From Escherichia phage fKMPT1: a DNA stretch of 64,000 nt. The position numbers were made by a program, and so were the translations under genes. Each line of letters begins with the position of its first letter. The first letter of the stretch is position 1. Below are positions 29,653 to 61,582 of the stretch, in pieces. Location of the stretch: sequence record PP620640; one strand, 5' to 3'. A model generated the notes under the pieces. The model searched no databases. It was given only the letters and a program-made list of their open reading frames with translations, and was not told the origin of the DNA.

Positions 29653-30156
29653 TCAAGATAGTTTTGCAAACTCTCCGTGGAGTTTTATAGCAGCTTCACA
29701 GTAAGCTTTATGGGCTTCTTCAGGTGTATCAAATAGACCAAGTGATGACCTTTTACCTCTGCATGTTATAGTCGCCCTCCACTTATTGCAGTCTTTAAAG
29801 TAATGAACACCCTTGTAACCTGATTTGTTAGTCGTCTGCTTTACCCTGTTTTGAGCGTTTCCATATTTATCGGTCTCCCTAAGATTAGAAATGTGATTAT
29901 TACTCCTGTTGCCATCAATGTGGTCTATCATCTTAGTAGGTTTGTAACCATGCTCAAACCACCAAACAAGGTGATGCACTTTTATTACAACATCTTTGAA
30001 TTTAAGCACTTTGTAACCATAAGCATCACTTCCTCCGGCAACCTGACCAGCTTTAGCTTGTCTATTCCTATCATACCTGTTGTAGAAGACCCCTTTATCG
30101 GGGTCGTAAATAAAGTTGTCCTTGTAATCTTGAAGTGTTAGTGAACGGCGTACCAT
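29653..30156 (-). CDS. HNH homing endonuclease with AP2-type DNA-binding domain
   Basis: 167 aa; HNH_3-like motif MIDHIDGNRSNNHISNLRETDKYGNAQNR and AP2-like SGYKGVHYFKDCNKWRATI...LGLFDTPEEAHKAY; immediately downstream of intron-containing polymerase gene. Confidence 0.75.
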   Translation of the reverse strand: MVRRSLTLQDYKDNFIYDPDKGVFYNRYDRNRQAKAGQVAGGSDAYGYKVLKFKDVVIKVHHLVWWFEHGYKPTKMIDHIDGNRSNNHISNLRETDKYGNAQNRVKQTTNKSGYKGVHYFKDCNKWRATITCRGKRSSLGLFDTPEEAHKAYCEAAIKLHGEFAKLS

Positions 30157-30689
30157 GTTTTACCTACCTTACCAGTACCCGTGACAAGTGTCTTACTCTT
30201 TAATCCAAGATTTTTTGATGCTTGACCATACATTCTATCAATAATCTCCTTAACATCTGGTACAGCTTTTGTTGGAACCTCTAAAGAAACTTCGTCGTGG
30301 TAACTACAGACCCATCTAGCACCAATAGCTGGTTTCCTACCATTTAGAACTGTAAGTTTTCGCTCTGTTAACTCTCTATTAGCCAAGTTAATCCCCTCAT
30401 TCTGTACCTGCGCCTCACTACCCATGAGTGTGAAATTCAATAACTTATGTGGAGATTTACACCATAACCACGCTCCAGCGACTTTGATATAACCACCTTT
30501 GGCAATTGCAGAAGTTTTTCCAAAAACCTCTTCAAGTGCTTTCTTAGTTGCTTTGAAGTCTTCCTCTAACCTATCAAGCAGCTTTTTAATCTTAGGTAGA
30601 CGTACAAAGTAAGTTTGTTTAGTCAATGCACCTTCTTCCGTAGATGATGCCTTGATAGTTTTTGCAAACTTCTCGTCTCCAGCACCGAA
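30138..30689 (-). CDS. DNA polymerase, family A (T7-like), exon 2 (5' boundary approximate)
   Basis: Contains FGAGDEKFA (second half of motif B, cf. T7 YGAGDEK) and motif C YHDEV; no in-frame ATG or RBS at its 5' end, stop codon 4 codons upstream. Confidence 0.65.
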   Translation of the reverse strand, partial: FGAGDEKFAKTIKASSTEEGALTKQTYFVRLPKIKKLLDRLEEDFKATKKALEEVFGKTSAIAKGGYIKVAGAWLWCKSPHKLLNFTLMGSEAQVQNEGINLANRELTERKLTVLNGRKPAIGARWVCSYHDEVSLEVPTKAVPDVKEIIDRMYGQASKNLGLKSKTLVTGTGKVGKTWYAVH

Positions 30690-30965
30690 CAATACATCTG
30701 GTCAATACACTCGCAAGGTGTACCAGTTCTCTTATGAACTTCTCCGCATTTCTACGGAGTGTCGGACTATATCACGTAGCAGGATGCTACCGTTGCACTT
30801 GGGAATGGTCATTAGCTTACCACCCTACTCTACTCAGTTCATACGTTAAGTATGCTTTTCGATAGTCTCTGAACGTTCCTCTCAAGAGGCTTCGCTGCTG
30901 ATTACCGTATCTTCTCAGACTTAGGCTTCCAGCAATTCACAACGTTTTACATGCGCCACTGACGC
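30690..30965 (-). mobile_element. Group I self-splicing intron (ORF-less) in DNA polymerase gene; boundaries approximate
   Basis: On minus strand, in order: P-like gaattgctggaagcc (~30924-30938), Q-like aatcagcagcg (~30893-30903), R-like gttcagagactat (~30862-30874), S-like gatatagtccgac (~30761-30773) giving P7 GACTAT/ATAGTC; P9-like hairpin ctccgtagaaatgcggag; possible P1 pairing exon tttaT with intron Gtaaa; interrupts motif B of polymerase. Confidence 0.75.
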
Positions 30966-33104
30966 ATAAATGCCATTTTTGGCTTTCTTACGACCTTTTG
31001 TAATCTCGTGGAGAAGTTCCTCATCCTGTGTATACCTACAACGAACAATATCTTCTTCCTTGTTCAGACCAAAGTAAATACTGTTCAGTGTATGTGCATC
31101 AGTACCTGTGTATACTTCATAGAGGTCATTCTCAGCATCATAACGAAGGTACTTGTCAGTTTCTGGATTGAGGTACTTATCAAGATGCTTGCAATAGTAT
31201 CTTCCATCCTCTTGCTTGGTAAATTCTACTGACTCTTTACCTTGTGTTACCGCTTTAGTGAACTCTTCATCACCCATAAAGTTACAAAGAAGAACTAGCT
31301 GTGCTGAGTTTTGGTCTACAGAGATGATATCTGTCCCCTCTTCACAAGTCCACACCTCCCTCATAGGTGCTCCATAGACAGCAGCACCAGACGGTACGTT
31401 TACAATACCATATTGTGTCATACGTCCAGTTGAAGTACCAAATACCATTGCACCAGCACTAAGGCGACCATCAGGACGAATCTGGTTCAACCAACCTTTT
31501 TCATCATCCTTTGAGTTCTCAATAGTTCTGCGTCGGTGCATCAAAGTATAGTACTTAGCAATCTTCTGTCCAAGCTCACCTTCAATCGTATCATAAGATG
31601 ATTCAGTAAGTTTTGGTGAAGTACGGATTAAGCAAGGTTCAAGCAAATCTGTGTATTTCTTCACAGACCAGTTATGTTCAATGTACTGGACACCTTCATG
31701 TTCAACATAACTCAAACCACACCTTTCAACCATCTCATCCCACTTAGGATGCTTTGTAATCATCTTTTTGTTGTCTTTGAAACGACAAACTTTGACAGGA
31801 CGACCATCTGAGTCTTTCTTGTAGTTCCAGTCATCTGGAATCCAACCAACTGATTTCAAATAGTCTTTCACAACTGCTACCTGAGTCATACGAGAAACTT
31901 CGAACTCAATTGGTGTATATGGTGCATCAATCAAACCTGTGTAGCGACTTGACTCAAGCTCAAAGTGGTTAACAACATGGCTGTTATAGTACTTCACAGT
32001 TTTAACTGTTTTTACTGGCTTCCAATCTTTGCACTTCTTACCAATCTTTGCATTCAACTCATTGCAAATTGCACGAGCATCCTTCATTGCTACAAAACCT
32101 TCCTTGTACTCTTCACCAGTTACAGAGTTGGTTGGTGTATAGCAATTCCGCTTTTCAATGTTAAAAATCTTTGTAGTTGGCTTACCAAATGGCTTGATTT
32201 CATATGTCTGCATCTCACCGTTACGTACCTGCTGACGATACTTTGTCTTAGGGTACTTGGTAATTCTCTTCAGTCCATCTGCGTGACCAAATGCTTCAAC
32301 ATACTCATTCCAAGCTTTTGCAAACTCTTCTCCAGTGACTTTAACTTTGGTCTTGATAGTTGGAGGAAGATGTGGTTCAACTTCTGAAGCAAGCTCATTA
32401 GTCAACTTGTCAAGTTCCTTTACATGGAACTCCATAAGCTCTTTATCAGCTTTCCAACCATTGATAGCTTGTTGACTCATCCAGAAAGATGTTTCTTTAG
32501 CTCGCATGTAGGTTTCATAAGTATCTACGCCACACTTCTTCAGCTTGAGATATTCATTATCCAGTGCACGTTTAGTTTTGGCGTTAATACGGATATCTTC
32601 TACAACACGAGTGAAGATTTCTGCATTCCACACACCCCAATGTTCAATCTCTGGTTTACGTACACCGACACGAGCACCCCATGCAGCCAAGCCATGAGCA
32701 CCTTTATAGCCTTTTGGAGTTGGTCTATCCATCCATTGAACACGAGATTGGATAAGAGAATCCTGAAAGAAATTACTCCACGGCTTACACTTTGGATTAT
32801 CAAAGTTCCACAAATCAGGTGCAATGTGATTGAAAACCCACCAGTCATACCCCAGACCATTATGGATGCAAAGTCGTTTTGCCTTTAACGCAAACTCAAC
32901 ACCTTCACGCAAGCCACCCTTAATGTACTTGGTATACTTGTGACCGAGGATAGGCTCATCTGTAAAGACCCATACAGGTGGCTCTTCATCGTCAGATTTA
33001 TAGTCTGCGAAAGCCATTACGTGTACTTTAGTGAACTCAAGGAGTAAACCATCAGTTTCTGTATCGCCAACTAAATGTAAGTTTTTAAAATCTACGTTTT
33101 CCAT
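30966..33104 (-). CDS. DNA polymerase, family A (T7-like), exon 1 (3' boundary approximate)
   Basis: 3'-5' exonuclease Exo I motif VGDTETDGL; motif A-like DQNSAQLVL; ends in RKKAKNGIY (first half of motif B); likely true start at second in-frame ATG (MENVD) preceded by GAGGGAG RBS. Confidence 0.75.
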
Positions 33105-33361
33105 TTTTACTCCCTCTAAAATCATTAACCACATACATTACTGCAAAAAATTATAAAAAGCAAGTTGACAATGTACTTGACAAGGTGTTAATCTTTGCGA
33201 AGTGGGTTTTTACTTAAAAGGTTACTTAACAGTTTAACTATACAGATACTTTAAAACTCTTAAAAGATTATTTAATAGTTTTTAAAAAGCTTTAAAGTAT
33301 AACGTATAGAATACGTTAAGATAAAAGATTAAAACTTAATAGTTACTTAAAAGAGGCTTAC

Positions 33362-53420: not shown

Positions 53421-54302
53421 ATGAAAACATCTATCCGCGTTACAGTTCATTCACCAACTAAAGGAACTTATGAAGAAGAGTTTAACATCATCCAATTCCC
53501 TTCTGGTGAGATTGGTGGACACTTTTCACCAGAGTTTGTTGACTTCACTACTTATGCAGCATCATCTATCAACAATGTGATTATGATTGTAAAAGGTTAT
53601 GATAAAGATACATTGTTTGCTGTGGCACTTGCTAAAGAGGCGGTGGACAACTTAGTACCTCATAAGTTTGCTATGAAGACCATTATCTTTTACTATTTGC
53701 CAAATGCACGTTATGACCGTCACATGTTTAAAGGTGATGCAGCAGCTTTGAAAGTGTTTGCACAACAGGTTAATGCAATGGGTTTTGATGCAGTCTGTGC
53801 AGTTGACCCTCACAGCTATGTACCAGATAACCTGTTTAACTGCTTCCAAAGTATCCCTCAAAATGAAGTTGCAGTTCACTATGCAAATGACCCTCTGGTT
53901 GATTACTTAGTAGCCCCAGATGCAGGTGCTTCTAAGAAGATTGCAGAGACTGCTAAAGAGGTGGATAAACCATATATCACAATGTCTAAGGTGCGTAACC
54001 TTAAGACTGGTGAAATTACTGGTATGCGAATCCTTGATGATGTTGATTTGACAGATAAAACCGTCATGATTCTGGATGATATTTGTGATGGAGGACGAAC
54101 CTTCATAGAAGCAGCTAAACATCTTCGTGAAGCAGGTGCAAAACGTGTGGAACTCTATGTAACTCATGGTATTTTCTCTAAAGGGGTTGAAAACTTGCTT
54201 GACAATGGTATTGACCATATCTACACTACAAACTCTTTAGGGGAAGCTAAAGACCGTGGCTTAACACATTATGCTCAAGTTACTGTAGCAAACCTTGATT
54301 AA
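53421..54302 (+). CDS. Ribose-phosphate pyrophosphokinase (Prs) family protein; Prs or ADPR-PP synthetase-like
   Basis: 293 aa; collinear with Prs motifs: IFYYLPNARYDRH (cf. VIPYFGYARQDR), VAPDAGASKK (cf. VSPDIGGVVRA), PRPP-binding loop VMILDDICDGGRTF...AGAKRVELYVTHGIFS. Confidence 0.7.
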   Translation: MKTSIRVTVHSPTKGTYEEEFNIIQFPSGEIGGHFSPEFVDFTTYAASSINNVIMIVKGYDKDTLFAVALAKEAVDNLVPHKFAMKTIIFYYLPNARYDRHMFKGDAAALKVFAQQVNAMGFDAVCAVDPHSYVPDNLFNCFQSIPQNEVAVHYANDPLVDYLVAPDAGASKKIAETAKEVDKPYITMSKVRNLKTGEITGMRILDDVDLTDKTVMILDDICDGGRTFIEAAKHLREAGAKRVELYVTHGIFSKGVENLLDNGIDHIYTTNSLGEAKDRGLTHYAQVTVANLD

Positions 54303-54311
54303 AACTTTATA

Positions 54312-54332
54312 GGGGCTTACAAGCCCCATTTT
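54312..54332 (+). terminator. Weak terminator-like hairpin
   Basis: ggggc-ttacaa-gcccc followed by ATTTT. Confidence 0.4.
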
Positions 54333-54347
54333 GAGAGAGATTAAAAG

Positions 54348-56129
54348 ATGACTAAATCACTTTATGCAGTACCAGCAGGTTTAAACGCAGACGCTTACAA
54401 ATCTGGTCACATCTACCAGTATCCTAGTGCAATAGAGTACTTGATGTTCAACCTGACACCACGTAGTGATAAATGGTTTAACAGCCCCTTAGCAATTGAC
54501 GGTGTAGTGGCTTTTGGTATTCAACGTTTTGTTAAAGATTACCTGATAGACCACTGGAACGCCACCTTCTTCGAACGTGACAAAAAAGAAGCAATTGACG
54601 AAATCTTAGAAGTCATGAACGGTGTTCTGGGTAAAGATGCTATTGGTCGAGAACATTGGGAAGCACTCCACGACTTAGGTTATCTACCAGTTGAAGTATA
54701 CGCTGTAGAAGAAGGCACAGTTGTCCCTATGCGTGTACCAATGATTGTCTTCCAGAACACTGTTTCAGGTTTCCATTGGGTAGCGGGGTATCTGGAAGAT
54801 GCTTTCTCTGCTGAGATTTGGAAGGCTTGTACCATTGCAACTATTGCATTGCACTACAAACGTATCTGTAAGAAGTGGTCTGACCTTACTTGTGACAATG
54901 ACTTGCATTTACCTTATCAGTGCCATGACTTTGCTATGCGTGGTATGTCTGGCTTTACTGATGACGCATTTAATGCTGTAGGCCACTTAACCAGCTTTAA
55001 AGGGACTGATAGCTTCCCTGCTGTATACACGGCTAAACGCATCTATGGACAGCCCTACCCAATCTCTGATATTGGTAGTTCTGTACCAGCCACTGAACAC
55101 TCTGTAATGTGTGCAAACATTGCTTGGGAAGGTGGTAATGAGTTGATTGAAGAAGAAAGACGCTTTAAAGGTGAGTTACAAACCTTCCGTCGTTTCTTAA
55201 CAGAAACTTACCCAACTGGTATTGCAAGTGTTGTTTCAGACACTTATAATTTCTGGAAAACTGTATCAGAAATCTTACCAGCACTTCGCAAAGAGATTAT
55301 GGAACGTGACGGAAAACTGGTAATTCGTCCTGACTCTGGCGACCCTGTACATATTGTCACAGGTTATAAAGCAATCCACTTAGAGTGCGCTAAAAAAGCT
55401 TATTACGAACACCTAAGCAAGCTGGAAGCCAGCGACACAAAGTTGAATGCTGTTCTGAACATGAATCTTGAAGACATTCACTATATTATGGCTGGGTGGT
55501 TACGTACAGAAGGCTATGAAATGGTGGTTGACAGAGAAGACTTTGAAGTAGCTGATACAGTGCTTCTGAAAGATGCCTACATCAACGGCTCTGCAAACGT
55601 TGTAACACGTCCTGTAGCAGAGATTGATGGAGCTATTAAGACCCTGTATAACATCTTTGGAGGGACTATCAACGCTAAAGGTTTTAAAGTACTGGATGAG
55701 CACATTGGACTTATTTATGGTGACTCTATCACGTTGGAACGTGCAAACGAAATCCTTAAGCGTTTGTATGAAATGGGTTTTGCAAGCTCTAACGTAGTGT
55801 TTGGTGTAGGTTCTTACACTTACCAGTACATGACTCGTGACACCTTTGCATTTGCTGTTAAAGCAACTCTGGCAAGCATTGGTGGCAAAGAGATTATGCT
55901 TGCAAAAGACCCTAAAACAGATAGTGGTGTTAAGAAGTCTGCTTTTGGTGGTGTAGCACCTATGTGGGATGGTGATAAGCTGAAAGCTGTAGATGGCTAT
56001 GGGTTCCAGAGCTTTGCAGATGTGCTTGAACATCCAGCTTGTGCTTTACGTTTAGTCTTTAGTGACTCTGAGCAGTTTGGTTACACAAATCTTGGTGATA
56101 TTCGAAATAATATTGACAAGCAGCTTTAA
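54348..56129 (+). CDS. Nicotinamide phosphoribosyltransferase family protein (NadV/NAMPT-like or Namat-like)
   Basis: 593 aa; N-terminal LNADAYKSGHIYQYPS matches NAMPT LATDSYKVTHYKQYP; immediately downstream of Prs-like gene. Confidence 0.7.
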   Translation: MTKSLYAVPAGLNADAYKSGHIYQYPSAIEYLMFNLTPRSDKWFNSPLAIDGVVAFGIQRFVKDYLIDHWNATFFERDKKEAIDEILEVMNGVLGKDAIGREHWEALHDLGYLPVEVYAVEEGTVVPMRVPMIVFQNTVSGFHWVAGYLEDAFSAEIWKACTIATIALHYKRICKKWSDLTCDNDLHLPYQCHDFAMRGMSGFTDDAFNAVGHLTSFKGTDSFPAVYTAKRIYGQPYPISDIGSSVPATEHSVMCANIAWEGGNELIEEERRFKGELQTFRRFLTETYPTGIASVVSDTYNFWKTVSEILPALRKEIMERDGKLVIRPDSGDPVHIVTGYKAIHLECAKKAYYEHLSKLEASDTKLNAVLNMNLEDIHYIMAGWLRTEGYEMVVDREDFEVADTVLLKDAYINGSANVVTRPVAEIDGAIKTLYNIFGGTINAKGFKVLDEHIGLIYGDSITLERANEILKRLYEMGFASSNVVFGVGSYTYQYMTRDTFAFAVKATLASIGGKEIMLAKDPKTDSGVKKSAFGGVAPMWDGDKLKAVDGYGFQSFADVLEHPACALRLVFSDSEQFGYTNLGDIRNNIDKQL

Positions 56130-56142
56130 AAGTATATGATAA

Positions 56143-56165
56143 GAGGCTCCTACGGGAGCCTTTTT
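56143..56165 (+). terminator. Rho-independent terminator
   Basis: ggctcc-tacg-ggagcc hairpin followed by TTTTT. Confidence 0.7.
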
Positions 56166-56182
56166 AATTTCTGGAGAAGATT

Positions 56183-56518
56183 ATGAAAATCAAAGAAATG
56201 AATATCAATATTGTCTTAGAAGAACGTTGGGAGAACATCAAGAAGCCTGAAAATGGTCATAAGTTCCTCAACAAAATCTTAGTAGCAGCTAAAGAAGAAC
56301 TGACTGGCAAGGTTGCAGCAGCAATTACAATAAAGGTGTGTGTAAAAGGTCTTCCAGACAATCACCAATTTGCACTTGACGAGTTTAAAGAAAGCTTCTA
56401 CAATCCAAACAAACAGATGCTTGAAAGTAATTTTGCAGTATCTACAAGTATCGTCCATGACAGAAGCTTTATCCTTTACAAGAATATGAGAGGTGAGTCA
56501 TGCAAGCATATTGGATAG
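56183..56518 (+). CDS. Hypothetical protein
   Basis: 111-aa ORF. Confidence 0.35.
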   Translation: MKIKEMNINIVLEERWENIKKPENGHKFLNKILVAAKEELTGKVAAAITIKVCVKGLPDNHQFALDEFKESFYNPNKQMLESNFAVSTSIVHDRSFILYKNMRGESCKHIG

Positions 56519-56676
56519 AAATTTTACTGTCACTTGGTAGTGTAGCAGTATTTGTTTACCTTCTTTGCAAGTACTATGCAGAACACAAAAAATGTGACTT
56601 CTGTAACGGAGAGGGTTATACAAGAGCAGGTTGTTGCCCTATGTGTGGTGGTTCTGGTAAAATGTTTAATAAGTAA
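56500..56676 (+). CDS. Small membrane-anchored protein with two CxxCxGxG (DnaJ-type) zinc-finger motifs
   Basis: 58-aa ORF missed by track length cut-off; MQAYWIEILLSLGSVAVFVYLLCKYYAEHKKCDFCNGEGYTRAGCCPMCGGSGKMFNK; RBS GAGAGGTGAG. Confidence 0.45.
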   Translation: MQAYWIEILLSLGSVAVFVYLLCKYYAEHKKCDFCNGEGYTRAGCCPMCGGSGKMFNK

Positions 56677-56704
56677 TTTAACAGTAAACTAAGAGGAAAG
56701 TATT

Positions 56705-59071
56705 ATGCGCATGGTAAACGACCACGCAGAAGTGATTAAGAGTTCAACTTCTTTAGAGACGTCGCAAGCACAGATTACAATGACACCTGAAATGTTCAGC
56801 CTTTTGAGTTCTGGTGTATATACCTTTAAAGAAAGGGCAGTGATTCGTGAACTGTCATGTAACGCAGTAGATGCTCAGAAAGAAGCTGGAAAAGAGAATA
56901 TCCCGTTCCATGTGCATTTACCTACTCGTTTTGAGCCTTACTTTGAAGTTCGTGATTTTGGAACTGGATTAACTCATGATAAAGTTATGAGTTTGTACCT
57001 AAACTATGGGGCTTCTACGAAGAATGACTCTAATGACTACATTGGTGCAATGGGTATCGGCTCAAAATCACCATTTGCAATTGCTCAGTCATTCACAGTG
57101 TCTAGCTATGTTGACGGTGTTGTTAATAAGTACTCTGTTTATCTTGAGAATGGTATCCCTCAAGTAACTAAACTGACCACTAACCCAACAAAAGAACCTA
57201 ATGGTTTAGCTGTACGTGTGGCAGTTGCTGACCACCGTATTTCAAAGTTCTTTGAAGAGGCTGGTAATGTATACTCATACTTTGCTGTAAAACCAGAAAG
57301 TAACATCGAGTATGACGATGTACTAGCAGATATGAATGTCATTGCCCGTGAAGAAGGTGTCTATGATGCCATGATTCATAAGCAAAGCTGGCGTTCTAGT
57401 GGTAACAGGACAGAGTTTAATGTGGTGATGGGTAATATCGCCTATCCAGTTAACATGGAAGCATTACTTGGAGATGATTTCTTCAAAGTCTTGCCAGAAT
57501 TTTTCCGTAGGAGCGTAGACCTTGTAAACATCTACATGCCTATTGGTTCAGTCGCTATTGCAGCTTCTCGTGAAGCATTGCAGATGAATGATACGACAAA
57601 AAATGTTATCATTGAGGCTACTAAAAAGATAACTGAAGCAATTACAAAGGATGTTATCAAGAAAGTTAATAGCCAACCTACACTCATGGATGCTGCACAG
57701 GCTTATGCTGAGTTACGTTTGAACTCACGAGAGATGTTCAATGCTGTGTGTCCAAAGCTAGAGTGGGGTGGTGTTAAGCTTGATTCTCTGGAAGAAGAAT
57801 TACTAAACATTCGTCGTGGAATTATCTACGCAGAAGACGGCTCAGTCATTTACGAACGTGACGGCAAAGGCAATATTAAGGTTGATAGGAACGGGAACAA
57901 TATCCCTAAAGTAGATTATCTTTATGACCCAGTTGCTTACGTCAAGTTCAACTCTTTAGAGAGTAAGATTCGTGCAACATCGCTTTCCTACACTCAAGAG
58001 GCAAGTATGTTCAATATCTTTGGCGCAATGCGTAAAAGCCAAATTGAACAGTTTTTGTTTGTTATAAATGACCGTCGCAATAAAAATGGTACTGAGAAGA
58101 CTGTAGGACGCAATCAAATTTTGCGTGGTGCATGTCGAGACTATGCCAATGAGTCAAGTCTGTTTCACAGATACAATGGTATTGTCTTTGTATTCTCTAC
58201 AGAGAAAGAGCTAGACGACTTAATCAATTTGCACAAACTTGATAAAAGCTTGTTAAAGATTGTGAAGATGTCTGATAAGGAACACCATTATCAGCGTAAA
58301 GAAGCTGTAAGAGGTGTTGTAAAACTTTGGAAAGCTGTTCCAGCAGAAGGTGTAGCTTCCTATAAAGAGGTTTCAGAGGACTTTGATACAATTGAAGAAC
58401 CTCAGCTTTACATTAAGGCAGTCGGCGACACAGTTGACGGTGAATGTTTTTGCTCATCTCCAGAAGATGTAGCTAAGTCAGTTGCAAATGTCATTGGGAA
58501 GACAGTCTATGTTTTCCGAAAAGCAAATTGGAAAAAGATACCAGAAGACTGGATTGAAGTAGATGAGAAGCTCTTGAACGACAGCTTAACTGATGTTCAC
58601 TGGATTAACCATAATAGGTATATGACACGCATCTATATGAATGGTGTCCTTGACCTCACAAGCAGTTGGATTATTGCCAGAAACTTTACGTTCAATAACA
58701 GGAAGATTTCTCGTGGCTATTGTTATTCACGGGATACAAACAAAACTATCTTCCTAGAAGGCAATGAGGATGCTGTTGAGGCAATGTTTGGTAAAATCCA
58801 ATACGTTGCTGCACCGTTTGCATACACTTACACTATTAGTAGACTGCAAACTTTGAAAGAATGCCTTGATAACGATACAAAGCTGTACAAGAAAATCAAG
58901 AAAGCTGGTGACCGTATGGTCATTAAGGTGACAAACTACCTTTCAAAAAGGAAACAAGAAAACTTCTTGCTTTCTCATTTAGATTGGGATAAAGTGTCAC
59001 CCATCGAAGTGAGTAAGTTCTTAGGCTTTGATGTGAAGTGTGTTCCAGAAGGGACTACAATTTACGATTAA
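56705..59071 (+). CDS. rIIA: rIIA-like protein with GHKL (HATPase_c) ATPase domain
   Basis: 788 aa; Bergerat-fold boxes: N-box ELSCNAVDA, G1 DFGTGL, G2 GAMGIGSKSPFA; size as T4 rIIA. Confidence 0.6.
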   Translation: MRMVNDHAEVIKSSTSLETSQAQITMTPEMFSLLSSGVYTFKERAVIRELSCNAVDAQKEAGKENIPFHVHLPTRFEPYFEVRDFGTGLTHDKVMSLYLNYGASTKNDSNDYIGAMGIGSKSPFAIAQSFTVSSYVDGVVNKYSVYLENGIPQVTKLTTNPTKEPNGLAVRVAVADHRISKFFEEAGNVYSYFAVKPESNIEYDDVLADMNVIAREEGVYDAMIHKQSWRSSGNRTEFNVVMGNIAYPVNMEALLGDDFFKVLPEFFRRSVDLVNIYMPIGSVAIAASREALQMNDTTKNVIIEATKKITEAITKDVIKKVNSQPTLMDAAQAYAELRLNSREMFNAVCPKLEWGGVKLDSLEEELLNIRRGIIYAEDGSVIYERDGKGNIKVDRNGNNIPKVDYLYDPVAYVKFNSLESKIRATSLSYTQEASMFNIFGAMRKSQIEQFLFVINDRRNKNGTEKTVGRNQILRGACRDYANESSLFHRYNGIVFVFSTEKELDDLINLHKLDKSLLKIVKMSDKEHHYQRKEAVRGVVKLWKAVPAEGVASYKEVSEDFDTIEEPQLYIKAVGDTVDGECFCSSPEDVAKSVANVIGKTVYVFRKANWKKIPEDWIEVDEKLLNDSLTDVHWINHNRYMTRIYMNGVLDLTSSWIIARNFTFNNRKISRGYCYSRDTNKTIFLEGNEDAVEAMFGKIQYVAAPFAYTYTISRLQTLKECLDNDTKLYKKIKKAGDRMVIKVTNYLSKRKQENFLLSHLDWDKVSPIEVSKFLGFDVKCVPEGTTIYD

Positions 59072-59073
59072 AG

Positions 59074-59106
59074 TGTTTGACAAGGGGCTTCAAAGCCCCT
59101 TAGAAT
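59074..59106 (+). promoter_or_regulatory. Promoter, TGTTTGACA-N18-TAGAAT with GC hairpin in spacer
   Basis: -35 TTGACA 59077-59082; spacer aggggcttcaaagcccct (palindromic); -10 TAGAAT 59101-59106. Confidence 0.5.
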
Positions 59107-59150
59107 AGTCTTACAAAATGATTTATTAACTAACAAGAGAGAGTAATAAG

Positions 59151-60260
59151 ATGACTACTAAAACTAAAGCACAGATTGACGCAGAAATTTACGAACTGGT
59201 TAAAGAAGGTAAGCTGACTAAAACAGCTATTGCACAGAAGTTCAATACTTCAACCCGTTCAGTTGGTCGTGCTGTAGAGCGTCATGAAGCAACCTTAAAA
59301 GGTAAGAAGAAGACGACTTCTAATCCAGCTAAGAAGACCCTAAAGCAAGTTGCTAAGTCAGTTAAAAAGAAAGCTGGAAAACCAGTTGAAAAGGTTGTTA
59401 AAAAGGCTGTACAAAAAGCTCCGGTAAATAAACTACACGAAGCTATGCAGAAAGATGACAAGATTGAGTACATGATTACTGGTGACTCTGTAATTATGAC
59501 TTACGGTTCAGAATCTGAAATTGTTGAGTCTACTCATCCGAACTATCAAGAGATTGTAGTTCATGTTGTGAAAGGTGAGTTCAAGAAAGCCTTTGAACTG
59601 ATGAACATTCGTAAGTCTATCGAAAACTTCACTCAGGGTGCTATCACAATCAAAGGTGACAAGTTATTCTACGGTGCTGTTGAGATGCGTTCTACTCTGG
59701 TTGACCGTATTCTTCACATGATGAAGACTGGTGATAAAGGTTTTGAACGACTTGTAATGTTCTTCGAAAAACTGATGGAAAACCCATCTAAAGACTCTGT
59801 AGAACAACTTTGGGGATTTGTATCTCACCTTGATGTTGAGATTGATGAAGAAGGCTTCATCATTGGTTGGAAGAAAGTCTCTACTCGTGAAGGTAAGCTG
59901 GTTGACTCCCACACCTACAAAGTACCTAATGATTTGGGTAACATTGTAGAAATGCCACGTTGGATGGTTGATAACAACCGTAACGTAACTTGTTCTCAAG
60001 GTCTTCATGTTGGTGCTTGGGATTATGTTCGTTACTTCTCAGGTGATACCATCCTGAAGGTTCGTGTCCATCCACGAGATGTTGTATCTGTTCCAACTGA
60101 TTACAACGATATGAAGATGCGTTCATCCCGTTATGAAGTTGCAGCAATCGTTGATAATCAGCGTAAAGTACTGAAAGCGTGGGATGGTAAGACTGAGGCT
60201 TTGCATGTCATCGTTGGCACTGCTGGTGAACTCATCTCCCAACGTAAACGTGAAATCTAA
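59151..60260 (+). CDS. rIIB-like protein (candidate, by synteny)
   Basis: 369-aa ORF directly after rIIA-like gene; N-terminal HTH-like segment and Lys-rich linker; no diagnostic motif recognised. Confidence 0.35.
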   Translation: MTTKTKAQIDAEIYELVKEGKLTKTAIAQKFNTSTRSVGRAVERHEATLKGKKKTTSNPAKKTLKQVAKSVKKKAGKPVEKVVKKAVQKAPVNKLHEAMQKDDKIEYMITGDSVIMTYGSESEIVESTHPNYQEIVVHVVKGEFKKAFELMNIRKSIENFTQGAITIKGDKLFYGAVEMRSTLVDRILHMMKTGDKGFERLVMFFEKLMENPSKDSVEQLWGFVSHLDVEIDEEGFIIGWKKVSTREGKLVDSHTYKVPNDLGNIVEMPRWMVDNNRNVTCSQGLHVGAWDYVRYFSGDTILKVRVHPRDVVSVPTDYNDMKMRSSRYEVAAIVDNQRKVLKAWDGKTEALHVIVGTAGELISQRKREI

Positions 60261-60276
60261 TAAGTAATTTCTTAAA

Positions 60277-60300
60277 AGGCTGCTTCGGCGGCCTTTTTTA
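60277..60300 (+). terminator. Rho-independent terminator (UUCG loop)
   Basis: aggctgc-ttcg-gcggcct hairpin followed by TTTTTTATTT. Confidence 0.65.
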
Positions 60301-60301
60301 T

Positions 60302-60329
60302 TTGTATTTTGTGCAGAGTGCTGTATAAT
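60302..60329 (+). promoter_or_regulatory. Sigma70-like promoter candidate
   Basis: TTGTAT -35-like at 60302-60307, TATAAT at 60324-60329 preceded by TG; RBS AGGAG before ATG 60361. Confidence 0.4.
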
Positions 60330-60360
60330 TGTTGTCACGATAAACTAAACAGGAGAACCA

Positions 60361-60909
60361 ATGAAGAATTTGATTCTAGGTTTGTGCTTAATGTTTACAG
60401 CACACTTATCTTATGCAGTTGACTGCCCAGAGCTATCAATTAGCCAAAAAGTAAACATGTTAAAAGCTTACCAGTATGGTGAGAACAACATGGGTAAAGG
60501 TTGGGGTATCACTCTAGCAGCTATAGCCTTACAAGAGTCAGAGTTAGGTCTGAAGGTAGAGAATAAAAAGACCCATGACTATGGTATTTTCCAGAATCAC
60601 TTGAAGACTGTTGTAAAGCGTAACAAAATCAGTCCTAATGTGGCTAAAAAGAAACTCTTAAAAGATTTTGACTATGCTGCAAAAGAGACACATAAAGAGC
60701 TTGAGTTTTGGACTAAGGTACATGGTCACCCGAAGTCAAAGAAGACTTTACAAAAAGTTTTGGCATCATATAATGCTGGGTATTCGTACAAAATCCCTAA
60801 AGCTAAGAAATACTCTCAAGATGTCTATAACAATATGAAAGTTATTGCTCAATGTGAATTTGCAACAAACATTTCTAAGGTAAATCATGAAAAAATTAAG
60901 AAAGTCTGA
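60361..60909 (+). CDS. Secreted lytic transglycosylase (SLT domain), endolysin candidate
   Basis: 182 aa; signal peptide MKNLILGLCLMFTAHLSYA; SLT motifs LQESELG, DYGIFQ, SYNAGYSY. Confidence 0.55.
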   Translation: MKNLILGLCLMFTAHLSYAVDCPELSISQKVNMLKAYQYGENNMGKGWGITLAAIALQESELGLKVENKKTHDYGIFQNHLKTVVKRNKISPNVAKKKLLKDFDYAAKETHKELEFWTKVHGHPKSKKTLQKVLASYNAGYSYKIPKAKKYSQDVYNNMKVIAQCEFATNISKVNHEKIKKV

Positions 60910-61582
60910 TGAAGTCCTGTGCCACGCTTATGACTTGCATCCTCATGAGTTAGGTCTTGATTCCTGTGTATGGACTCCAGAACAGTGCAGGGATTTTGAA
61001 GACACTGCAAGAGAAGTTGTATGTTCACTTGAAGAGTTCCACACATCAGAACCAATTGTGAACGTTGTGGATAAAGAAACTGGACAAGCTATAGGTGTAA
61101 GTCGTGATAGTTTAGTCATAGTCAATGAAGACCTTGTAGAAAAAGGTAACCTCATCTTAGCAGATATTGATGGTGTTCTTACAAATTTTAATCACGAAGA
61201 TTGCTCAACGGAATTGACTGACGGGTCATTTTCACAGTACACTAATCTTCTTGACTCTGTAAGAGCAAAACCAACATATATTTTCAGTATCATTGATGCA
61301 ATTGCTAATCATGCTGCCATTGGCCTCTTAACAGCAAGAGGTGAAACTCAGAGAATACCTACTGAGATGTTCTTGAGGCACAATATAGAGCATGATTACA
61401 TGCTTTTTATGCGTGGTTTTGGAACTAACTCTCTAAGTGCAGAAAGTTTAAAAGTGAGGATGATTCAGTCTTGCATTCTTCCTTACTTTAATATAGTATG
61501 TTTTATAGAAGATACAGAGAAGAATGTTCAGAAGGTTAACAGAATCCTTCCACACATCAAAACCATGCTAGTTAAACATTGA
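60887..61582 (+). CDS. HAD-like phosphatase domain protein (candidate)
   Basis: 231 aa; ILADIDGVLTNF resembles HAD motif I DxDG(T/V)L. Confidence 0.35.
   Translation: MKKLRKSDEVLCHAYDLHPHELGLDSCVWTPEQCRDFEDTAREVVCSLEEFHTSEPIVNVVDKETGQAIGVSRDSLVIVNEDLVEKGNLILADIDGVLTNFNHEDCSTELTDGSFSQYTNLLDSVRAKPTYIFSIIDAIANHAAIGLLTARGETQRIPTEMFLRHNIEHDYMLFMRGFGTNSLSAESLKVRMIQSCILPYFNIVCFIEDTEKNVQKVNRILPHIKTMLVKH

Follow-up and report, generated by a model that had tools for sequence, protein, structure and literature searches.

An rIIA–rIIB pair orthologous to the T4 rII genes in a Felix O1-like phage, and its probable role in counter-defence

The rII genes of phage T4 have counterparts in a 64,000-nucleotide (nt) stretch of DNA from Escherichia phage fKMPT1 (sequence record PP620640), which is referred to below as the window and numbered from its first letter. 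The T4 rII orthology of both genes, the intact ATPase motifs of rIIA, the domain architectures of the two proteins and the arrangement of their genes are established here. By analogy with related phages in which the genes have been deleted or knocked down, the pair very probably constitutes a two-component counter-defence module directed against abortive-infection systems. The rIIA–rIIB pair is already known, and there is nothing new in the identity of the genes. The initial annotation of the window, made from the letters alone, underrated how well known the pair is, both genes being already named in the record of Salmonella phage fBSPA4.

Results

Identity and distribution of the two genes

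Two open reading frames (ORFs) of 788 and 369 amino acids (aa) lie on the plus strand, separated by a gap of 79 nt (Table 1), exactly where the initial annotation had placed them. It had described the first product as rIIA-like and had called the second rIIB from synteny only, and both calls are borne out by the profile searches that it had proposed. The 788-aa protein matches phrog_612 ('RIIA') with an E value of 2.5e-189, residues 1–770 aligning with positions 1–716 of the 725 in the profile, and BLASTP aligns it with T4 rIIA (AF158101) at 32% identity over the N-terminal 306 aa (E 1e-36). The 369-aa protein matches phrog_609 ('RIIB', E 5e-89) and is 43% identical to T4 rIIB over the C-terminal 215 aa (E 1e-60), so that the rIIB call stands on sequence, beyond position. 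The phrog_609 profile (1055 positions) is also matched by the N-terminal domain of rIIA, at positions 31–299, with rIIB at 755–1048, which suggests that this family includes natural rIIA–rIIB fusion proteins or merged gene calls.

In a megablast search against GenBank phages, positions 56000–61000 are 100% identical to and co-linear with fBSPA4 (OR711204.1), a Felix O1-like myovirus of 87,179 bp from poultry in India, and match about 200 Felix O1-like phages of Escherichia, Salmonella, Shigella and Citrobacter at 90–97%. The fBSPA4 record annotates 56705–59071 as 'rIIA protein' (ASP4_00081) and 59151–60260 as 'rIIB protein' (ASP4_00082); these names are also found in most related GenBank records, and published reports of rII genes in genomes of the Felix O1 type go back at least to 2015–2016 (PMC4611695, PMC4837284). 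Relatives of rIIB were found by tblastn in 2,910 of 50,697 phage records, with hosts that include Escherichia, Klebsiella, Vibrio, Pseudomonas, Streptomyces, Arthrobacter and Rhizobium, and the rII module is therefore very widespread.

The backbone of the phage is Felix O1-like and carries T7-type replication genes, as the initial annotation had recognised for the latter. Over 592 aa, the primase-helicase shares 28% identity with T7 gp4A (E 1e-44); the fragments of the family A polymerase align colinearly with T7 gp5 (E 2.5e-8 and 1.2e-6), and there is a weak match between the exonuclease and T7 gp6 (E 1.5e-5).

The ATPase module of rIIA

The initial annotation had pointed to Bergerat-fold boxes in the 788-aa protein. 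All three quoted motifs are present, NAVDA at residues 53–57, DFGTGL at 84–89 and GAMGIGSKSPFA at 114–125. In an alignment of 77 rIIA homologues, reaching down to 22% identity, E49, N53, D56, D84, G86, G114, G117, G119 and K121 are invariant, and G88 is kept in 73 of the 77. The conserved residues are those of the GHKL N box (ExxxNxxD), G1 box (DxGxG) and G2 box (GxxGxG) and, given their invariance across the homologues, the motifs are not chance strings. From these motifs, rIIA would be expected to bind and hydrolyse ATP.

With the single sequence of rIIA, a Pfam scan gave nothing above cut-off (HATPase_c at E 0.12), an NCBIfam scan likewise, and a search of PDB sequences gave no match; many of its homologues carry a precomputed match to PF13589 (HATPase_c_3). 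The profile of the rIIA alignment, searched against all PDB sequences, retrieved 25 chains, all of them Hsp90-family N-terminal domains (TRAP1 at E 1.6e-4, HtpG, GRP94 and Hsp82), and hhalign aligned rIIA 30–176 with Escherichia coli HtpG 16–182 at a probability of 94.8% (E 5e-8). An AlphaFold2 model built from the alignment (mean predicted local distance difference test score, pLDDT, 87.4) has the alpha/beta sandwich of the Bergerat fold, and its best 50 Foldseek matches in the PDB are all Hsp90-family chains (E ~2e-14, 560–760 alignment columns). We conclude that residues ~19–325, as modelled, form a GHL-type ATPase-plus-transducer module, and that the class nearest to rIIA is Hsp90, both in sequence and, with a small lead, in structure.

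The second domain of this module contains an invariant loop, A-S288-R289-E290-x-L292, which parallels NVSREILQ at residues 333–340 of HtpG. In Hsp90, the latter stretch is a loop of the middle domain, with an arginine that makes contact with the gamma-phosphate of ATP, and the parallel is suggestive of a correspondence between the SRExL loop of rIIA and this catalytic loop. When rIIA 195–345 was aligned with HtpG 216–624 by hhalign, SRE fell on SRE, in an alignment that is not significant (E 0.015, probability 3%).

In the Hsp90 family (HtpG, TRAP1, GRP94), the ATPase domain is homologous to the N-terminal domain of rIIA and the two-domain module superposes, whereas the C-terminal half is unrelated and the similarity of the middle domain is not significant by sequence. 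Topoisomerase II, MutL and MORC are structurally almost as close to rIIA as Hsp90 is. The curated Hsp90 models are failed by rIIA, which has no match to Pfam HSP90 and scores 42.7 bits with NCBIfam NF010683, for which the cut-off is 455. It is akin to the Hsp90-type ATPases in descent and probably in working, yet it stands outside the Hsp90 family proper. A literature search that combined rIIA with Hsp90 returned only papers on Fc-gamma-RIIA.

Residues ~326–788 show no BLASTP similarity to T4 rIIA and no match to a solved structure, in agreement with the published description of rIIA as a GHKL domain joined to a variable C-terminal domain (PMC7824862). PADLOC gave a match of the GHKL domain to TmtA (E 1.3e-8) and a non-significant match to ZorA, an outcome that provides no evidence that the rII genes are themselves a defence system.

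Domain structure of rIIB

The model of rIIB (mean pLDDT 83.7) has three parts, a three-helix unit, a linker and an alpha/beta region (Table 1). The three-helix unit, a helix-turn-helix (HTH) domain as modelled, resembles sigma region 4, DeoR and DnaA domain IV. HTH families of Pfam strongly match other members of the rIIB family (HTH_23 at 9e-12, GerE at 4e-10), and residues 7–50 of T4 rIIB match HTH_7 (5.6e-5); the recurrence of the HTH in homologues and in T4 rIIB indicates that the HTH/linker/C-terminal architecture is common across the family. The Lys-rich linker is the most variable part of rIIB among Ounavirinae, and residues 50–95 contain 17 K/R and a single D/E. In the C-terminal region, F204, N211, G235, K241, R270, C281, G284, H286 and P308 are invariant, and this region matched no solved structural relative.

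Homologues of rIIB carry precomputed matches to PF26926. Our local Pfam scan of the 369-aa protein found no match to PF26926 and nothing above cut-off (HTH_Tnp_ISL3 at E 8e-4), and the NCBIfam scan was equally negative. Both rII proteins were accordingly assigned to their families through PHROGs, BLASTP with T4 and profile methods. Against the PDB, the single sequence of rIIB returned only noise, and its profile only weak HTH matches (E >= 0.05).

Comparison with the rII loci of other phages

In Bas63, SUSP1 and T4, as here, rIIA is directly followed by rIIB on one strand. T4 (AF158101; rIIA at 12–2189, rIIB at 167965–168903) shares this order, all GHKL motifs and the SRExL loop within the N-terminal ~300 aa of rIIA that are 32% identical, and the architecture of rIIB with its 43% identical C-terminal ~215 aa. 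It differs in the C-terminal ~470 aa of rIIA, which lack BLASTP similarity, in the N-terminal ~125 aa of rIIB, which BLASTP leaves unaligned together with their long Lys-rich linker, and in its genomic backbone, which here is not T4-like.

The locus of Bas63 (JohannRWettstein, MZ501086, Felixounavirus) reads, as does the present one, ribose-phosphate pyrophosphokinase (PRPP synthetase), nicotinamide phosphoribosyltransferase (NAMPT), 111-aa ORF, 58-aa ORF, rIIA, rIIB, 182-aa ORF and polynucleotide kinase, with the difference that Bas63 has one additional small ORF (bas63_0081) after NAMPT. Its host is E. coli K-12, whereas that of fBSPA4 is Salmonella. Bas63 gp84 (rIIA) is 98% identical to the present protein and gp85 (rIIB) only 83%, and the rIIB differences cluster at residues ~50–150, 255–262 and 287–291 and in the C-terminal tail (335–369). 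Phage phiSUSP1 (KT454805, Ounavirinae) belongs to the same subfamily and has the same locus arrangement, but is of another genus and carries a homing endonuclease between the PRPP synthetase and NAMPT genes; its rIIA is 63% and its rIIB 79% identical to the proteins studied here. The divergence is therefore uneven, rIIA being the closer of the two proteins in Bas63 and rIIB in SUSP1. Within Felixounavirus, clustering at 90% groups rIIA in one cluster and divides rIIB into at least six (83–96% identical to this rIIB). The patchy distribution of the rIIB differences is suggestive of an exchange of alleles or of diversifying selection acting on rIIB.

The PhageMaP study (10.1101/2024.10.10.617714) states that Bas63 g84 and g85 have '>80% homology' to T4 RIIA/B. 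This value was not reproduced, given that the near-identical proteins analysed here are 32% and 43% identical to T4 rIIA and rIIB, over partial lengths.

Gene layout and neighbouring features

The coordinates of the genes, of their domains and of the surrounding features are collected in Table 1. The 111-aa ORF is found at the same position in Bas63 (94% identity) and SUSP1 (58%). It is followed by the 58-aa ORF, whose end lies 28 nt before the start of rIIA. The 58-aa product has one predicted transmembrane helix at residues 4–24 (KD19 hydrophobicity 2.11) and a Cys-rich tail, CxxCxGxG...CCPxCGGSG. It is 98% identical to bas63_0083, a 'putative membrane protein', and 46% identical to its SUSP1 counterpart, its position being kept in both phages; speculatively, it might be the partner of the rII proteins in the membrane. 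A correspondence with T4 rIIA.1 was weighed and rejected, since rIIA.1 has no Cys, no hydrophobic segment and, by eye, no obvious similarity.

Table 1. Coordinates of the rII genes, their protein domains and adjacent features in the window.
Feature	Position	Strand	Evidence or remarks
Promoter-like site TTGACA-16-TATGAT, 11/12	56113..56140	+	Consensus scan, pattern match only
Terminator-like hairpin, 10-bp stem and T-run	56141..56164	+	Closes upstream nadV unit
111-aa ORF, no assigned function	56183..56518	+	phrog_4262, E 1.7e-68; annotated as ASP4_00080
58-aa ORF	56500..56676	+	phrog_3931, E 2.4e-33; absent from fBSPA4 annotation
rIIA gene, 788 aa	56705..59071	+	phrog_612; BLASTP to T4 rIIA; OR711204.1 annotation; Bas63 gp84, 98%
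rIIA Bergerat-fold (GHKL) ATP-binding domain, residues ~19–195	56759..57289	+	E49, N53, D56, D84-G86-G88, G114-G117-G119
rIIA second, transducer-like domain of the GHL-type module, residues ~196–325	57290..57679	+	Invariant S288-R289-E290-x-L292 loop
rIIA C-terminal region, residues ~326–788	57680..59068	+	Confident model
Promoter-like site in rIIA–rIIB gap, TTGACA-18-TAGAAT, 11/12	59077..59106	+	Consensus match only
rIIB gene, 369 aa	59151..60260	+	phrog_609; BLASTP to T4 rIIB; OR711204.1 annotation; Bas63 gp85, 83%
rIIB three-helix HTH domain, residues 6–50	59166..59300	+	Predicted structure
rIIB disordered Lys-rich linker, residues 53–91	59307..59423	+	pLDDT below 50
rIIB conserved C-terminal alpha/beta region, residues 94–369	59430..60257	+	Part common to T4 rIIB
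Terminator-like hairpin, 10-bp stem then TTTTTTATTT	60274..60297	+	14 nt past rIIB stop codon

A candidate start of the rIIA-containing unit is the promoter-like site upstream of the 111-aa ORF. This site ends one base ahead of the strong terminator hairpin at 56141–56164; transcripts from it would begin within the hairpin and would escape termination. In that arrangement, terminator and promoter would join compactly at 56113–56164, where the nadV unit gives way to the rII unit. In the rIIA–rIIB gap (59072–59150), the promoter-like site has a spacer that itself forms a GC-rich hairpin (AGGGGCTTCAAAGCCCCT), which is not followed by a T-run, and the gap may combine an internal rIIB promoter with RNA structure. 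A scan of 56000–60500 with Rfam matched no RNA family.

The upstream neighbours, at 53421–56129, are the PRPP synthetase and NAMPT genes, which by position and annotation are the counterparts of Bas63 g79/g80. The latter have been reported to counter Sir2-HerA (PhageMaP, 10.1101/2024.10.10.617714), and on this ground the genome stretch around rII looks like a cluster of counter-defence genes.

Elsewhere in the window, a group I intron lies at 30742–31024 on the minus strand, within the family A DNA polymerase gene (30138–33125). Its score with Rfam RF00028 is 59.9 bits (E 1.2e-14), above the gathering score of 50, and the single-ORF polymerase of SUSP1 (899 aa) maps to both exons in one frame, the exons being set apart by an insertion of ~268 nt. 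In the GenBank record there are two separate 'putative DNA polymerase' coding sequences, and the intron is left unannotated. An HNH endonuclease gene (29653–30156) is located just downstream.

Discussion

Several studies indicate that rII genes protect phages from abortive infection. Deletion of g84 or g85 in Bas63 lowers plating 10^4–10^5-fold on a host carrying qatABCD, and complementation mostly restores it (10.1101/2024.10.10.617714). Knockdown of rIIA or rIIB in SUSP1, T4, MM02, EdH4 and N4 lowers the efficiency of plating on cells with lambda RexAB and is without effect on naive E. coli (PMC11879866), and transposon sequencing in T4 is in agreement (10.1101/2025.11.20.689424). The link to Rex-type exclusion that the initial annotation had drawn is thus published in relatives, for SUSP1 with RexAB (PMC11879866) and for Bas63 with QatABCD (10.1101/2024.10.10.617714). 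On its own, the RIIB protein of T6 sets off a CARD/gasdermin defence, and it is toxic to E. coli (10.1101/2023.05.28.542683).

By analogy with these phages, both proteins would jointly keep a host or prophage abortive-infection system from killing or arresting infected cells ahead of progeny production, and both would be dispensable where no such system is present. In this scheme, rIIA would be a soluble or peripheral two-domain GHL-type ATPase with a lineage-variable C-terminal region, in which the binding and hydrolysis of ATP may drive a dimeric, clamp-like cycle as in other GHL ATPases, with rIIB as the partner of rIIA. Together they would either suppress the trigger sensed by the defence or block the membrane depolarisation downstream of it, action at the membrane being the working model in the literature.

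Some points weigh against a counter-defence role of this kind. The genetics come from phages other than fBSPA4 and from hosts other than Salmonella, and the ATPase activity is predicted from motifs. Neither rIIA nor rIIB has a hydrophobic segment of transmembrane grade. Within the genus, rIIB is markedly more variable than rIIA, so that the specificity towards defences may not match that seen in Bas63.

It might be argued that the 788-aa protein is another GHKL enzyme, such as the ATPase subunit of a type II topoisomerase, MutL, MORC or a histidine kinase, and that its adjacency to the 369-aa gene is coincidental. This is very nearly inconceivable, being refuted by the matches to phrog_612 and phrog_609 and by the BLASTP alignments with T4 rIIA and rIIB; the likeness of rIIA to topoisomerases is limited to the structure of the common GHL module. 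The initial annotation had named a second gene dissimilar to rIIB and a topoisomerase subunit as the outcomes that would speak against it. Neither was found: similarity to rIIB is present, the profile matches in the PDB comprise only Hsp90-family chains, with no topoisomerase among them, and rIIA has no Toprim or GyrB-type match in Pfam or NCBIfam. A different proposal takes the pair as 'lysis inhibitors' that directly delay holin-mediated lysis, the defence phenotypes being secondary. The rII names come from the historical r (rapid lysis) plaque phenotype of T4, the label 'RIIA/RIIB lysis inhibitor' stands in PHROG descriptions and in many GenBank records, and an indirect role in lysis inhibition has been repeated (PMC4837284). 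In T4, SUSP1, N4, EdH4 and MM02, however, knockdown matters only with RexAB (PMC11879866), and the phenotype of the Bas63 deletions is limited to the qatABCD host (10.1101/2024.10.10.617714). Moreover, the rII locus is not beside lysis genes, the endolysin of Bas63 being encoded elsewhere and the spanins lying ~1.8 kb downstream, past the terminator. A direct role in lysis is thus most improbable, and 'lysis inhibitor' is an inherited name rather than a tested function.

A less remote alternative, although still an unlikely one, is that rIIB is a DNA-binding transcription factor tuning phage expression (Iyer et al. 2021), with rIIA as its ATP-dependent regulator, and that escape from the defence is achieved through altered expression or a masked nucleic-acid trigger and not at the membrane. 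The confidently modelled HTH of rIIB and its likeness to sigma region 4, DeoR and DnaA IV, the recurrence of HTH matches in homologues and in T4 rIIB, the strongly basic linker and the lack of transmembrane segments in both proteins are in line with this proposal, and rIIB has been classed as a specific transcription factor (PMC7824862). The same features leave some room, at about one chance in four or five, for an action of the rII pair on a nucleoprotein trigger instead of at the membrane. Counter-defence by the two proteins together nevertheless remains the reading that we favour.

Taken jointly, the structural features point to a tentative and rather improbable picture in its full detail. 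In it, rIIA would work as a GHL clamp ATPase of the Hsp90 kind, its transducer arginine lying in the SRExL loop, and rIIB would be a partner that binds DNA or nucleoprotein through its HTH and basic linker and has a C-terminal domain of new fold with invariant Lys, Arg, Cys and His. The pair would act on a nucleoprotein trigger sensed by RexA or QatABCD instead of at the membrane, and the conserved 58-aa membrane/zinc-ribbon protein could tether the complex in Ounavirinae.

For this locus, the consequence is small, given that the genes were already named and the decisive genetics have been published in Bas63 and SUSP1. More widely, the structural details described here apply to the whole rII family, whose discovery dates back some seventy years, and they are leads rather than discoveries. 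They yield residues to mutate, namely E49, N53, D84 and R289 in rIIA and K241, R270, C281 and H286 in rIIB. Where Felix O1-like phages are used in therapy, their rII status is a predictor of sensitivity to defences of the RexAB and QatABCD types, and possibly also to those that sense RIIB.

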